IMG/VR virus record: IMGVR_UViG_2563366867_000010
Length of the DNA stretch: 15,730 bases
Direction: 5' to 3' (one strand)
Origin: a virus
Lineage: Duplodnaviria > Heunggongvirae > Uroviricota > Caudoviricetes
The notes under the pieces are model-generated. The model had not been told where the DNA came from and ran no database searches. It was given only the letters and a program-made list of their open reading frames with translations. The stretch's first letter is position 1. Each line of letters begins with the position of its first letter. Made by a program: the position numbers and the translations under genes. Positions 311 through 15,730 of this stretch are shown here, in pieces.

Positions 311-338
311 ATTCTACAGTAAAACCCCGCGCTTTCAA
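311..338 (-). promoter_or_regulatory. Candidate sigma70 late promoter (PR'-like) directly downstream of Q
   Basis: On the minus strand: -35 TTGAAA (338..333, overlapping the Q stop codon), 16-nt spacer, -10 TAGAAT (316..311). Followed by a GNRA-type hairpin (rc of about 262..275, ctgccGTAAggcag). This position matches where lambdoid late promoters and qut sites lie. Confidence 0.4.
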
Positions 339-760
339 TTTCCCGTATGTCCGGAAAACTGACTGACCTGTGCCCCTGATCGTTCACGCTCAACGTATCT
401 GTCCATTTCCAGTTTTATTCCCTGCATAATCAACATCCCCTCAATAACACCTTCAGCTTTTTGCAGTACCCGCCCGGCCCAGCAATCAGAGCGCTCATGC
501 TTACGGCCCAGTCCCATAAGCGTCATCCCGAACACATAATAATCATACAGAAAATCATGCAAATCGCTGTTGTTGACGTTCAGTTGCGCCATGCAATTGC
601 TGATAATCAGCGCATCATCATCGGTACACTGAGGCCGTGATTTAACCTTTGATGGGATCACGCCCTTAAATCCGGCAGCGACGCCGGACCATGCCACACT
701 CTCATGATTATTTACCACCCATGCACCCCATCGGGACAGAACCTGTTGGATATCACGCAT
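335..760 (-). CDS. Phage antitermination protein Q (QuuD/QuuQ-like, lambdoid late-gene regulator)
   Basis: Translation [72 protein letters not shown] closely resembles the E. coli prophage Q antiterminator family from memory. Start chosen at the internal ATG 760 (GGAG 9 nt upstream); the ORF-track start at 784 has no Shine-Dalgarno. Confidence 0.85.
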
Positions 761-838
761 TATTCTGTACTCCGCTGTAACCATACTTTTTCTGATTTGA
801 ATGCTCAGGGGGAAAATGTCTACTGGATATCTCCGGCT

Positions 839-10486: not shown

Positions 10487-10711
10487 ATGATTATTTCATT
10501 CACCGATTACGGCGAACAGGCAAAACTGATTATCACCAGTTCCCGCCTGACATTGCGAAAACATAATCGTGTCGTTGATGCGGTACTTCTGTGCACGCCG
10601 GACATCACAGAAAGCCGGAGCGGCTTTTTCCTGGTTAAGTCGTCATTATCAGGAAAAACACGCGACATCCTGCGCGCCTACAAAACAGCAACAAGGGAGT
10701 CTGAACGATGA
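10487..10711 (+). CDS. Hypothetical small protein
   Basis: 74 aa from ATG 10487 with GGAG 11 nt upstream. Its stop overlaps the next start (ATGA). Confidence 0.5.
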   Translation: MIISFTDYGEQAKLIITSSRLTLRKHNRVVDAVLLCTPDITESRSGFFLVKSSLSGKTRDILRAYKTATRESER

Positions 10712-11070
10712 AAGAAGCTGATCTGAAAGCACTGCGTGACGCCGCACAAAATACCGTATATGGAGACAAGGGATGTGATCTGGAAGCATTTCACTCCCTT
10801 GCCACTCCGCCAGTTATCCTTGCGCTAATCAGTCACATAGAAAATCTGGAGAAAAAACTGGATGAAATCGTAACGTCAGAGATTAGCCCGAAGGCCTGGC
10901 TGAATAACCTTACGGGGGAAGTTTGCAGTATTGATGCCATGCCTGACGCCCGTAATGACAGAGAAACATACACCCCGCTTTATCCTGCCTGGCAGCGCAT
11001 TGCCGCCGCAGATGATAACGGCAGAGTGGCATGGATGTATACGCACAAAAAAGCAGGTTACAGGGTCTAA
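10708..11070 (+). CDS. 5' fragment of an early-left phage gene interrupted by IS4 (possibly Ea22-like; truncated 120-aa product)
   Basis: AGGGAG 8 nt upstream of ATG 10708. The reading frame runs into the IS4 left end, whose first three bases (TAA, 11068..11070) supply the stop codon. The same frame resumes immediately after the right target duplication. Confidence 0.6.
   Translation: MKEADLKALRDAAQNTVYGDKGCDLEAFHSLATPPVILALISHIENLEKKLDEIVTSEISPKAWLNNLTGEVCSIDAMPDARNDRETYTPLYPAWQRIAAADDNGRVAWMYTHKKAGYRV
11056..11067. repeat. Target-site duplication, left copy (GGTTACAGGGTC)
   Basis: An identical 12-mer flanks the IS4 on the other side at 12494..12505. Confidence 0.85.
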
Positions 11071-12493
11071 TGCCAGTCAGTTAAGCAACTGACTGGCTCT
11101 TTTTCGGGGCTGTGGGGTATTTCCAGGGCCTCTCCTTTACCACTCTCGGGAAGGCCCTTTCCCTTCTTGTCGGTAATTTCACAAGTTGTCCCATACTTGC
11201 AAGATCGCGCATCAGCTCCGGTATACGTCCCGGTGAAGCGCCCTGCAATGTCATCAGCATTCTCATCACCATTCCGCATGATTCTGAGAAACTCAGTTGA
11301 TTCGGCCAGTAACCTTTCAGATGTTCCGCCATTTTAATCATCTGATATCTCACCAGATTATAAGCCAGTAAGACACCCCACAGCTCTTGCTCCACAAGCT
11401 CCGGCTTTTTACTTCTCAGCGTCAGCCTGCTCCGTTGCATCGTCTGTTTTATCTCCCTGTATCCCAGTTCGATTTCCCAGCGATGACTGTACAGATCCCC
11501 CATTTCTCCTCCGGGGAAGCGCATGGCGTCCGTCATCGACGTCAGCAGATGGCAGACTTTTCCTTTGCGCGTCACGGTCAGCAGGCGGGCAGTCACTTCA
11601 TTTCCCAGTCCCGGCCACTTTTTTCGTGCCTGCGGGCTGGTTTTCAGCTTCACCAGATGATCGCCTTTACCCAGTTTTCTGATCTCTTCATATTGCGCTC
11701 CCTTTCTGAGAGGTATCATCCAGTGGCGGTGTTCTCCCGCCAGGCTCCAGGCATTTAACAGTCCCAGTGAGTAATAACCTTTATCCATTAACGTCAGAGT
11801 GTTATCGCCGGTTTGTTCTATAAGTTGCTCAGCAAGCTCATTTTCGCTGTTCTTCATCGTGCCGAAGGCTGCAGCCGTCAGCAGATGGCTGGTCAGTTCC
11901 ATCTGGCAGACCATTTTGACCTGCGGGTAGAGCGCCGGGTTCCCGGCATGTGTCTGGCGGGGGAAGGCTGCATCGTTCTCTGGTGTATCCGGTGTGCGCC
12001 AGAACACACCATCGATGGCCAGCAGGGTCAGGCCGCACCAGTGCGGATGCGGCGTGGCGTTATGCCAGAGCTGCGCTGTTTTCGTGAACACGCGGCGGAC
12101 AGCCTCACTTCCCAGGCGCTGGCGGGCCTGAATAACGGCACTGGGGGCAACGAAGGGGCGATTGCCCGGCAGCATGATGTCCAGGCGATTCACAATCTGG
12201 TGAAGAGGTTCTTTACGCTCAAGCGCCATGCCAACAATACACCAGACCATCATTTCGAGGGGAAGACGGCGCTTGCGTAGCGTTACAGTACCTGATTCGG
12301 CAAGGCAACGAGAGATGAGTTCGGGGTCGAGGTAATCCCCCAGAGAAGTCAGTGGGTTACGCAGAGAATCGTAACGGGATACCAGATCAAGAGCCTGTCC
12401 AATGTGCATAAAAAAATCCGGAAACAAGTGAGCGTTTCCGGATTCTTACACAGCCACTGGATCGGTCAACTGATCCTTAACTGATCGGCATTA
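11068..12493. mobile_element. Insertion sequence IS4, complete copy (1426 bp)
   Basis: Terminal inverted repeats TAATGCCAGTCAGTTAAG (11068..11085) and rc TAATGCCGATCAGTTAAG (12476..12493). A single transposase ORF fills the element. Flanked by a 12-bp direct repeat. Confidence 0.9.
11081..12409 (-). CDS. insG: IS4 transposase (DDE, IS4 family)
   Basis: 442-aa translation beginning [40 protein letters not shown].. matches the IS4 transposase as I recall it. The ORF-track start at 12427 is a TTG; the true ATG is at 12409. Confidence 0.9.
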
Positions 12494-12505
12494 GGTTACA
12501 GGGTC
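12494..12505. repeat. Target-site duplication, right copy (GGTTACAGGGTC)
   Basis: Identical to 11056..11067 and directly abuts the IS4 right inverted repeat. Confidence 0.85.
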
Positions 12506-12511
12506 CCCACA

Positions 12512-13048
12512 ATGACATCGTGGGAAAGTCTTGCAGAAGAGCGGGGAGGCTCTCTGGATAAATATATCGTCAGTCCACTATTCACTGTTCCTCAGATACC
12601 GCCAGTGAGAACAGAACAGGATGCTTACCCTGATGTGCAGGTTTCATGGGATGCAACACGTCACTATGTCAACGGCTGGAACGCCTGCCGACAGGCAATG
12701 CTGACGACGGCAGAAAAAGTACTTGATGTGCGAATCCCTGAATATATCGGACGCTGGCTTTCCGCTGCACTTCATGATCAGAACTCATGCGAGGAAATGA
12801 AAAACGATATACGACGCTTCCTGGCTGAATACCACCATGTTCCATCGAAATATAACGGCTGGCGACTTGTACCGGACAAGTTAACCGAACAGATGAAGTA
12901 CCGGATTGTGCCACTACTGGCGACCATCAAGCCCCGCAGCGTCGATGAATATGACCGCTCAGGAGAAAACGCACAATTTCTTGAATGGGTATGGACGCAA
13001 CTGATGGAAGCCACGAAATTCGCGTATGAGGGCTCAGTGAATGGGTGA
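12512..13048 (+). CDS. 3' fragment of the IS4-interrupted early-left gene (178-aa ORF from an internal ATG)
   Basis: After conceptual removal of IS4 and one duplication copy, this ORF is in frame with 10708..11067 (..KKAGYRV-PT-MTSWESLAEE..). Whether the internal ATG 12512 is used is unknown. Confidence 0.55.
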   Translation: MTSWESLAEERGGSLDKYIVSPLFTVPQIPPVRTEQDAYPDVQVSWDATRHYVNGWNACRQAMLTTAEKVLDVRIPEYIGRWLSAALHDQNSCEEMKNDIRRFLAEYHHVPSKYNGWRLVPDKLTEQMKYRIVPLLATIKPRSVDEYDRSGENAQFLEWVWTQLMEATKFAYEGSVNG

Positions 13049-13283
13049 AATGGTTGATATTAACGATGAACTGGTCCGCACAGTAATTACCGTTGATGAC
13101 GGATGCGACCATACCCAGCGTTTTATCTGGATGATGAATACACGGCGTAATATCAGAAACAAAGTGTTCCGGCACGAACCAAAGCCAGTCAGGGTGACAA
13201 AGATACGCATTGAAGCCAGAAAACGCCGCAAATACAGGCCACGGAAGGCCTGGGCCCCAGCGCAACCGGATGAACTGGCATAA
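13041..13283 (+). CDS. Hypothetical protein with basic C-terminus
   Basis: 80 aa with GAGGG 8 nt upstream. Start overlaps the preceding stop. The C-terminus is Arg/Lys-rich (KIRIEARKRRKYRPRKAW). Confidence 0.5.
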   Translation: MGEMVDINDELVRTVITVDDGCDHTQRFIWMMNTRRNIRNKVFRHEPKPVRVTKIRIEARKRRKYRPRKAWAPAQPDELA

Positions 13284-13303
13284 AGACAGCAGGAGAATAA
13301 GTC

Positions 13304-13450
13304 GTGAATCGCGAGTTTGAAATATGGATACGACTCAGATACGGGTACCGATACGATTTAACCAGAGATGCTCACGGCTTCTACTGCCGTGAAGTTGTAA
13401 AGCGAATGTTTGACGTGTGGTGCCACTGCCGTGGCCTGAAGATAGTGTGA
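13304..13450 (+). CDS. Possible small protein (48 aa, GTG start)
   Basis: Not in the ORF track. AGGAGA 7 nt upstream of GTG 13304. Contains four Cys (C..C..CHC). Ends 7 nt before the excisionase start. Confidence 0.3.
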   Translation: MNREFEIWIRLRYGYRYDLTRDAHGFYCREVVKRMFDVWCHCRGLKIV

Positions 13451-13457
13451 GTCAGGA

Positions 13458-13712
13458 ATGGAAACAATCATCTATCAGATAACGCCCAGCAAATGGTGCA
13501 CAGAAAGAACCCTTATTGCTGCAACTGGACTGAAATCAGGAACCATTGCCAGAGCAAGAAAAAAATCCTGGTTACTGGGGAAAGAATACCGTCATTACGC
13601 AGCAGAAGGAGAGCCCGGGCCTTTCAGTGAATGTGTATACAACATTGAGGAAATTATGCGCTGGATCGAAAACCAGAAACAACCAGGTGCCAAAAATGCA
13701 AGTTCCGGTTAA
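13458..13712 (+). CDS. xis: Excisionase-like protein (lambda Xis-type winged helix)
   Basis: 84 aa immediately upstream of the integrase. The pattern ITPSKWCTERTLIAATGLKSGTIARARKK..GKEYRH parallels lambda Xis (LTLQEWNARQRRPRSLETVRRWVRE..GREYLF). Confidence 0.7.
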   Translation: METIIYQITPSKWCTERTLIAATGLKSGTIARARKKSWLLGKEYRHYAAEGEPGPFSECVYNIEEIMRWIENQKQPGAKNASSG

Positions 13713-13745
13713 CCTGTTAATGCTCCTGGACGTCTGGGAGGTTTA

Positions 13746-15035
13746 ATGAGTAACGCATCATACCCGACAGGCGTTGAAAACCATGGCGGATCACTCCGCA
13801 TATGGTTTCACTATAACGGCAAACGTGTCAGAGAAAACCTCGGTGTTCCTGACACCGCCAAAAACCGGAAGATCGCAGGTGAACTTCGCACTTCCGTTTG
13901 TTTTGCAATAAGAATGGGGAGCTTCGACTACGCCGCGCAGTTCCCTAATTCCCCTAACCTGAAACATTTTGGTCTGGGAAAAAAAGAGATAACCATTAAG
14001 GCACTTTCGGAAAAATGGCTTGAGCTTAAGAAAATGGAAATAACAACAAATGCCATGGTCAGATACAAATCAGCTATCCGAAATTGCCTTGACTGCCTTG
14101 GAGGGAACAAACTGGCATCATCAATTACACAGGAAGATGTTCTCATTTTTCGTAAAGAATTATTAACGGGATATCAGTTGCCAAGAAAAATTCAGAGGAA
14201 GCCTATTAAAGGTCGTAGTGTACCTACTGTAAATAGCTATATGACAATTATCTCCGGGATGTTCCGTTTTGCGGCAAACAATGGGTATATAGGCAAAAAC
14301 CCTTTCAGTGAGCTTCCATCACTGAAAAGAGCGAAAACACCTCCCGATCCACTAACAAAAGATGAGTTTGCCAGACTGATTGATGCGTGCCACCACCAGC
14401 AAACTAAAAATTTCTGGTCGCTGGCTGTATATACCGGGATGCGGCATGGCGAACTGTGTGGGCTGGCATGGGAGGATATCGATCTGGAAGCGGGTACCTT
14501 GACCGTCAAAAGGAATTACACTCAGACAAAGGAATTTACACTACCCAAAACAGATGCAGGAACAAACAGGGTAATACAACTCATACAGCCAGCAATTGAC
14601 GTATTAAAAAATCAGGCGACATTAACCAGGCTTGGTAAACAATATCAGATAGAAGTAAAGCTGCGAGAGTATGGCCGGACAAGCACTCACTCATGCAGCT
14701 TTGTTTTCAATCCTCAGATATTAGATCGCACAGGTAACTCAGGAGTTCATTATGCCGTAACATCCATCAACAGAACATGGGAATCTGCATTAAAACGAGC
14801 AAAAATTCGCCATAGAAAAGCGTATCAGTCTCGGCATACTTATGCTTGCTGGGCTTTAACTGCCGGAGCAAATCCAAACTTCATAGCCAACCAGATGGGA
14901 CATGCGAATGCCCAGATGGTTTACAATGTTTACGGTGCATGGATGAAAGACAATAACCAGTCCCAGGTAGAAGTACTAAACAGAAAGCTATGTACTTATG
15001 TCCCACAGGTGCCCCAACGACTAAACAAAGCATAG
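13746..15035 (+). CDS. int: Tyrosine recombinase / phage integrase (lambda Int family)
   Basis: 429 aa with GGAGG upstream. C-terminal catalytic-domain signatures: R in YTGMRHGELCGLAWEDID, H..R in SRHTYACWALTAGANP, GHANAQMVYNVYGAWM with the presumed catalytic Tyr. Lies next to xis at the prophage end. Confidence 0.9.
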   Translation: MSNASYPTGVENHGGSLRIWFHYNGKRVRENLGVPDTAKNRKIAGELRTSVCFAIRMGSFDYAAQFPNSPNLKHFGLGKKEITIKALSEKWLELKKMEITTNAMVRYKSAIRNCLDCLGGNKLASSITQEDVLIFRKELLTGYQLPRKIQRKPIKGRSVPTVNSYMTIISGMFRFAANNGYIGKNPFSELPSLKRAKTPPDPLTKDEFARLIDACHHQQTKNFWSLAVYTGMRHGELCGLAWEDIDLEAGTLTVKRNYTQTKEFTLPKTDAGTNRVIQLIQPAIDVLKNQATLTRLGKQYQIEVKLREYGRTSTHSCSFVFNPQILDRTGNSGVHYAVTSINRTWESALKRAKIRHRKAYQSRHTYACWALTAGANPNFIANQMGHANAQMVYNVYGAWMKDNNQSQVEVLNRKLCTYVPQVPQRLNKA

Positions 15036-15079
15036 AATATATTTTTAAAATCAAATAGTTAATACATAGGTACAAGTAC

Positions 15080-15730
15080 ATGAACAATATGAACGTAATT
15101 ATTGCCGATGACCATCCGATAGTCTTGTTCGGTATTCGCAAATCACTTGAGCAAATTGAGTGGGTGAATGTTGTCGGCGAATTTGAAGACTCTACAGCAC
15201 TGATCAACAACTTGCCGAAACTGGATGCACATGTGTTGATTACCGATCTCTCCATGCCTGGCGATAAGTACGGCGATGGCATTACCTTAATCAAGTACAT
15301 CAAGCGCCATTTCCCAAGCCTGTCGATCATTGTTCTGACCATGAACAACAACCCGGCGATTCTTAGTGCGGTATTGGATCTGGATATCGAAGGGATCGTG
15401 CTGAAACAAGGTGCACCGACCGATCTGCCGAAAGCTCTCGCCGCGCTGCAGAAAGGGAAGAAATTTACCCCGGAAAGCGTTTCTCGCCTGTTGGAAAAAA
15501 TCAGTGCTGGTGGTTATGGTGACAAGCGTCTCTCGCCAAAAGAGAGTGAAGTTCTGCGCCTGTTTGCGGAAGGCTTCCTGGTGACCGAGATCGCTAAAAA
15601 GCTGAACCGCAGTATTAAAACCATCAGTAGCCAGAAGAAATCTGCGATGATGAAGCTGGGTGTCGAGAACGATATTGCTCTGCTGAATTATCTCTCTTCT
15701 GTGACGTTAAGTCCGGCAGATAAAGACTAA
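15080..15730 (+). CDS. rcsB: Response regulator RcsB (Rcs phosphorelay, LuxR/FixJ-type HTH)
   Basis: 216-aa translation MNNMNVIIADDHPIVLFGIRKSLEQIEWVNVVGEFEDSTALINNLPKLDAHVLITDLSMPGDKYGDG..LSPADKD matches E. coli RcsB essentially end to end as I recall it. Receiver domain with phospho-acceptor Asp in LITDLSMPG; C-terminal LuxR-type HTH. Confidence 0.95.
   Translation: MNNMNVIIADDHPIVLFGIRKSLEQIEWVNVVGEFEDSTALINNLPKLDAHVLITDLSMPGDKYGDGITLIKYIKRHFPSLSIIVLTMNNNPAILSAVLDLDIEGIVLKQGAPTDLPKALAALQKGKKFTPESVSRLLEKISAGGYGDKRLSPKESEVLRLFAEGFLVTEIAKKLNRSIKTISSQKKSAMMKLGVENDIALLNYLSSVTLSPADKD

Follow-up and report, generated by a model that had tools for sequence, protein, structure and literature searches.

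In the established lambda system, a heterobivalent integrase acts at an attachment (att) region that holds arm-type and core-type sites with a site for integration host factor (IHF) between them; xis lies adjacent, and int is directed toward att. The same elements are recognised at the end of a 15,730-nucleotide stretch of Caudoviricetes DNA (IMG/VR record IMGVR_UViG_2563366867_000010; hereafter the window), where xis, int and the Escherichia coli host gene rcsB are three co-oriented genes on the plus strand. The window is very likely the left (early/int) end of a lambdoid prophage, and, with equal confidence, the structure of the locus points to entry by site-specific recombination into an 11-bp core placed across the rcsB start codon. 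The similarity of its integrase to lambda Int is marginal (E about 2e-4 over ~95 residues). Unlike in lambda, the putative arm-type sites lie inside the coding end of int, no sib-like structure was found across the core, and integration hits a protein-coding gene, at its start codon, instead of an intergenic site. A sib-like terminator or hairpin spanning the core, which integration would part from int, was rejected, as there is no plus-strand terminator and the region folds no better than shuffled sequences (z = -0.38).

The window follows a design known from IntR-type and yecE-type prophages, in which int lies upstream of its target gene and is co-oriented with it, and combines this design with a new target. 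IntR of the Rac prophage in E. coli K-12 is 43% identical to the window's integrase over its full length and likewise has an excisionase gene upstream. Co-oriented with ttcA and 51 nt upstream of it, the intR gene has TTGCCCCAATTTGCCCCA just after it and tandem TTGCCCCA repeats beside its 3' end. The prophage boundary falls 50 nt inside ttcA, so that the phage supplies the 5' region of the gene. Rac thereby swaps the first ~16 ttcA codons for phage-encoded ones, whereas no RcsB residue is altered in the window. Rac further differs in its target gene and core, and it is a defective remnant.

The yecE-type integrases, which belong to Stx1/Stx2 and related lambdoid prophages (for example the OkiPb01692 prophage; phage records Stx2_12E129_yecE, YYZ-2008), are 72% identical to that of the window overall, and their first ~80 residues, which form the arm-binding domain, are identical. 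At the DNA level, xis and the first ~300 nt of int are 89-97% identical, and the same TGTCCCA-N4-TGCCCCA pair occurs in the 3' end of int, which again lies directly upstream of, and co-oriented with, the 5' end of the target gene. In contrast, identity falls to only ~65% in the core-binding and catalytic part, yecE takes the place of rcsB as the target, and int overlaps the target start by 17 nt, where the window has a 44-nt gap and a core on the ATG. As the DNA similarity ends ~300 nt into int, the gene appears to be a mosaic of a shared arm-binding module and a different core-recognising part, which suggests that a swapped module altered the target specificity. The same fall in similarity after the arm-binding domain is seen across 13400..14042 in comparison with OkiPb01692 (L004) and phage records H26-H45.

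The closest described case is the Stx2b (Shiga toxin 2b) prophage of sequence type 141 (ST141) O2:H6 hybrids, represented by strain 04-00955 (CP035498). Its int-rcsB junction is 99.8% identical to that of the window, and it occupies the same att core between rcsD and rcsB, although it is without the IS4 element carried by the window. The prophage of the window belongs to the same phage family as the Stx2b-converting phage of E. coli O2:H6; over its length the window is closest to the stx-negative relatives in DETEC-S792 and deer strain 48. Gati et al. reportedly described in 2019 that ST141 hybrids between E. coli that produce Shiga toxin (STEC) and uropathogenic E. coli (UPEC) acquired an stx prophage between rcsB and rcsD, an insertion site that had not been known before. 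No description of rcsB or rcsD as a prophage attachment site was found in the full-text literature searched, and that report lies outside it. As the best match, 04-00955, belongs to the O2:H6 group, being an O2:H6 STEC/UPEC hybrid (PMC3958309), the finding is already known in kind and very probably also in this instance.

Attachment core and prophage ends

An initial sequence-only reading had proposed that a prophage integrase adjoins rcsB, that no rcsD-like sequence lies upstream, and that the prophage sits at the rcsD-rcsB junction and separates the two genes. All of this is borne out. Only 44 nt (15036..15079) lie between int and rcsB (Table 1), and blastn and tblastn searches of the window with rcsD returned 12-16-nt chance matches and no protein match. 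In complete genomes with the same junction, the prophage lies between an intact rcsD and rcsB and measures 42 kb in DETEC-S792 and 62 kb in 04-00955. At the far end, rcsD is full length (890 amino acids, one substitution) and keeps its native stop codon and spacer.

The core was located by aligning the window and the prophage ends of these two finished lysogens with the empty site of the non-lysogen FDAARGOS_536. In the empty site, the rcsD stop codon TAG is followed by a 16-nt spacer, CAAGGTAGCCTATTAC, and then by the rcsB ATG. The only block common to attB, attL and attR is TACATGAACAA, which spans the final three spacer bases, the start codon, the codon after it and two bases of codon 3. 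The duplicated core expected from such an alignment is therefore present in both related lysogens. The position first proposed for it, in or near 15036..15079 or the 3' end of int, holds for the start of the core, at the very end of that range, but the core extends beyond the ATG into codon 3. Placed end to end, the host-side attL sequence, the core and the host-side attR sequence match the empty site at 131/131 nt, so that precise excision would be expected to restore attB. In the source genome of the window, the expected attL is rcsD-TAG-CAAGGTAGCCTAT-TACATGAACAA-CGTACTTG, the phage side of which is also given as CGTACTTGTTGC.

Similarity of the window to the empty site begins only at 15077, and all of 15036..15076 is phage DNA. 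These 41 nt replace the native 5' region of rcsB and carry a core-type site and an IHF-site consensus, together with an AGGT in the Shine-Dalgarno position. Because the phage carries the same 11 bp as the host, the rcsB coding sequence is rebuilt exactly. The encoded protein matches the RcsB equivalog model NF008098 over its full length (467.7 bits against a cutoff of 235), contains a receiver domain (PF00072) and a LuxR-type helix-turn-helix domain (PF00196) by Pfam, and is 100% identical to RcsB of non-lysogens, the accession WP_001061917.1 being common to lysogens and non-lysogens.

At the rcsD-side end of the related prophages, the old rcsB ATG opens an 8-codon relic open reading frame (ORF), ATG AAC AAC GTA CTT GTT GCA TTT TAA (MNNVLVAF*), which is found together with the native rcsB ribosome-binding region in attL of two lysogens (L005:1181..1207 and L003:40500..40530). 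Transcripts from the native rcsD/rcsB promoters would enter the right end of the phage there. Cargo near this end (L005:1733..8084; L003:20546..39973) includes an S6-family (SPATE-like) autotransporter peptidase of ~1330 amino acids and YadA-like adhesins, and the 62-kb version additionally carries an 8.4-kb LPD38-domain gene.

Integrase and the reconstructed phage attachment site

A tyrosine integrase of the lambda-Int type, the enzyme has an arm-binding domain and belongs to the IntR/yecE-type group. Its catalytic domain, PF00589, spans residues 203-396 and scores 73.7 bits (cutoff 27.1); its N-terminal arm-binding domain, PF12167, scores 84.3 bits. The enzyme matches solved tyrosine recombinase structures, and the conserved blocks TGMRHGEL, PKT, SRHT, GHAN and YNVY, which may hold the catalytic residues (Arg, Lys, His-x-x-Arg, His/Trp, Tyr), align with Tn1549 Int.

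When attP was rebuilt by joining both phage-side arms, its core region read ACAAGTAC-ATGAACAAC-GTACTTGT, a perfect 8-bp inverted repeat around a 9-bp centre. The paired motif TG[TC]CCCA-N4-TGCCCCA occurs in exactly two copies, in the same orientation, in the 42-kb related prophage. One lies ~130 bp inside one prophage end and the other ~78 bp inside the other end, the latter corresponding to the copy in the window. With ~13.5 specified bases in the motif, the confinement of both copies to the att arms is not due to chance, and they are likely to be arm-type sites.

Conservation among relatives agrees with this architecture. Integrases 78-81% identical to that of the window adjoin rcsB, 44 nt upstream, in Trabulsiella guamensis ATCC 49490 and in metagenome contigs whose RcsB proteins are 97-99% identical to that of the window (97% in contig L110). 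Metagenome contig L108 ends ~45 nt into rcsB, and IMG/VR contig L016 ends at the core. The phage-side 44 nt have diverged, yet 5/5 versions keep the arm motif, the IHF consensus and AGGT[AG]CAA[AG]TAC directly before the ATG. Since integrases of 78-81% identity lie at rcsB and those of 72% identity or less occupy other sites, such as yecE, targeting of the rcsB start is a stable property of the integrase clade.

Table 1. Positions of genes, putative recombination sites and candidate expression signals in the window
Feature	Coordinates	Strand	Basis
Q antiterminator	335..784	-	
IS4 element	11068..12492		
IS4 transposase ORF	11081..12427	-	Pfam Nterm_IS4, DDE_Tnp_1
Excisionase (XisR-like, DUF1233), 84 amino acids	13458..13712	+	Pfam PF06806, 2e-27; xisR in related RefSeq annotations
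Tyrosine integrase, 429 amino acids	13746..15035	+	PF12167 Arm-DNA-bind_2 5.7e-24; PF00589 Phage_integrase 2e-20
Likely paired arm-type motif TGTCCCA-N4-TGCCCCA, inside int 3' coding end	14999..15016	+	Conserved in five diverged relatives and a yecE-type phage
Sigma-70 promoter-like match TAAACA-18-TAAAAT toward rcsB (hypothetical)	15022..15051	+	Consensus match only, 9/12
IHF-binding consensus WATCAANNNNTTR (AATCAAATAGTTA), contains TAA 15060	15049..15061	+	Regex match in rebuilt attP, 28 nt from core
Shine-Dalgarno-like AGGT, phage-supplied	15068..15071	+	9-12 nt upstream of rcsB ATG; invariant in five diverged versions; function inferred
Core-type site half ACAAGTAC	15072..15079	+	Inverted partner GTACTTGT across core at other prophage end
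att core identity block TACATGAACAA	15077..15087	+	Common to attB, attL and attR; overlaps rcsB start codon
rcsB, complete, wild type, 216 amino acids	15080..15730	+	NCBIfam NF008098 467.7 bits, 1-216/216

Expression of rcsB in the lysogen

In Salmonella, rcsB is transcribed from PrcsDB, upstream of rcsD, and from PrcsB, inside rcsD, and PrcsDB is repressed by RcsB (PMC3572086; PMC5651002). It can be inferred that in the lysogen both described promoters are displaced by 42-62 kb, beyond the far side of the prophage. With both lost to rcsB, phage-derived transcription is the most likely source of its mRNA, which would come from read-through of xis-int, from a weak local promoter overlapping the end of int, or from both. 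No terminator-like site was found on the plus strand downstream of 13799, a range covering most of int and the int-rcsB gap; in the absence of a terminator between the two genes, read-through from xis-int into rcsB is plausible. The local element is the sole promoter-like match in 13000..15730. In the native spacer, AAGGT lies at -15..-11 relative to the ATG, and in the phage DNA AGGT lies at -12..-9. Most likely, RcsB would still be made, its amount and autoregulation being uncoupled from rcsD.

Several observations weigh against this account of integration and expression. The far end of the window's own prophage falls outside the window. A free-phage attP was not found, an exact pattern across the rebuilt attP giving 0 matches in IMG/VR, and in the phage record collection there was no record with the full integrase, matches, at 89%, being confined to xis and the initial ~300 nt of int. 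The rcsB promoters are known from mapping in Salmonella rather than in the present E. coli strain. The rcsB-directed promoter-like element is only a 9/12 match to the consensus, shares sequence with the A/T tract of the IHF site, and occurs in just 3/5 diverged versions, with 10/12 in L108, 9/12 in L016 and no match in Trabulsiella and L110. Given this overlap and occurrence, its partial conservation may reflect a function in recombination rather than transcription; a conserved phage promoter for rcsB was rejected on the same grounds and is kept as a hypothesis. Finally, the IS4 element upstream of xis-int may block read-through from early phage promoters in the copy represented by the window.

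A looser attP pattern in IMG/VR returned prophage junctions, an unrelated family of metagenome viral contigs and two isolated chance matches sharing 20 nt. The unrelated contigs (L092, L093, L095, L099-L102 and L105) share the 20-mer AGGTACAAGTACATGAACAA in an apparently conserved coding region with unrelated flanks, which is taken as a chance match.

Transcription of the early-left operon and of int is normally low in a lambdoid prophage under repression. From this it can be argued that the insertion amounts to a regulatory knock-down, with rcsB silent or strongly under-expressed. Lysogens would then be rcsB hypomorphs with less colanic acid and increased motility and curli, and only excision would restore the rcsDB operon. 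The position of both described promoters upstream of the insertion (PMC3572086; PMC5651002) fits this reading, as does a phage-side promoter that is weak and not universally conserved, and rcsB alleles that have lost their function reportedly occur widely among STEC (PMC10562709). However, there is no terminator between int and rcsB, AGGT is invariant at the Shine-Dalgarno distance, each version rebuilds the rcsB ORF exactly, and every lysogen seen, whatever its genus, has an intact, wild-type rcsB. The conserved AGGT and the intact gene are no proof of expression. The knock-down is a serious but less likely alternative to transcription of rcsB from phage DNA.

A bolder proposal, and a clearly less probable one, is a rewiring of the Rcs phosphorelay by the prophage: with rcsB moved into the xis-int transcription unit and away from the RcsB-repressed PrcsDB, RcsB dosage would be tied to the state of the prophage. 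RcsB would then be low in stable lysogens and rise in a burst on induction, and the native operon would return on excision. The phage would then control capsule, motility, biofilm or superinfection phenotypes, and the invariant AGGT and exact ORF rebuilding across diverged phages and several genera would reflect selection keeping rcsB translatable.

Far weaker is the suggestion, raised in the initial reading, that a short 3' tail of rcsD was retained upstream of rcsB, with the junction upstream of the TAA at 15060..15062. This codon is present, in the frame of int, and sits 17 nt before the rcsB ATG, near the native 16-nt spacing. However, the native stop codon is TAG, and the native spacer differs from TACATAGGTACAAGTAC in the window. 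Similarity to the empty site only from the core onward speaks against the tail as well, and 15036..15076 is conserved with phages of the same integrase clade in other hosts and holds the IHF-site consensus, which the TAA overlaps. A retained rcsD tail ending at this TAA was excluded by the attB/attL/attR alignments, and the chance that such a tail persists is negligible.

The IS4 element of the window is flanked by a 13-bp target duplication, AGGTTACAGGGTC, at 11055..11067 and 12493..12505. It splits a hypothetical early-left gene of ~300 amino acids (10708..11070 and 12512..13048) that is intact in all related prophages. Lying between the early-left genes and xis-int, the element may be polar on the latter. 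The window begins just downstream of Q, and the position of stx, downstream of Q, falls outside it. In related prophages, a type I restriction-modification pair, HsdM/HsdS, is also found downstream of Q.

Occurrence of the junction and its significance

The last base of the window, 15730, ends the rcsB stop codon, as in several IMG/VR prophage predictions (L012, L013, L014 and L017), and the counting of host rcsB into a 'viral' contig is a gene-boundary artefact of prophage prediction. Such a software-defined boundary might suggest that the junction is itself an artefact of assembly or prediction on a chimeric contig, but the identical junction in 13 genomes finished independently of one another and coming from several countries, as well as in independent metagenome assemblies, together with a matching attL at the other prophage end, makes this next to impossible, and misassembly is excluded.

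In a survey of 5426 complete E. coli genomes, rcsD-rcsB was uninterrupted in 5359, and the int-rcsB junction was present in 13; it was further found in five IMG/VR contigs and in three human-gut or other metagenome contigs. The window thus represents ordinary phage integration at a rarely occupied site. The four lysogens examined (04-00955, DETEC-S792, deer strain 48 and the food isolate CFIAFB20190167) are not one clone. The 62-kb prophage of 04-00955 carries stx2b, which is found in this lysogen only (1/4), and the 42-kb prophage of DETEC-S792 and those of the other two strains are stx-negative relatives. The lysogens also differ in their RcsC allele and in the presence of the ato operon after rcsC, the latter indicating different chromosomal backgrounds. 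In 04-00955 the ato operon follows rcsC (L002:25547..32797); deer strain 48 and CFIAFB20190167 lack it and have yfaP directly next (L114, L115:25655). In combination, the differences in prophage content (42 versus 62 kb, with stx2b or without), RcsC allele and downstream genes suggest repeated use of the rcsB site.

What the present analysis adds to the kind of insertion already known is the exact position of the core on the start codon, an attP-like architecture, and the presence of the same integrase clade at the rcsB start in other genera. These details, including the cross-genus conservation, may be new, though not surprising for integrases of this family. As output regulator of the envelope-stress phosphorelay, RcsB governs capsule, motility, biofilm and virulence genes in enterobacteria. 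By leaving rcsB intact but depriving it of its native promoters and of linkage to rcsD, a prophage could alter RcsB dosage in carrier strains, which include Shiga toxin-producing/uropathogenic hybrid E. coli.

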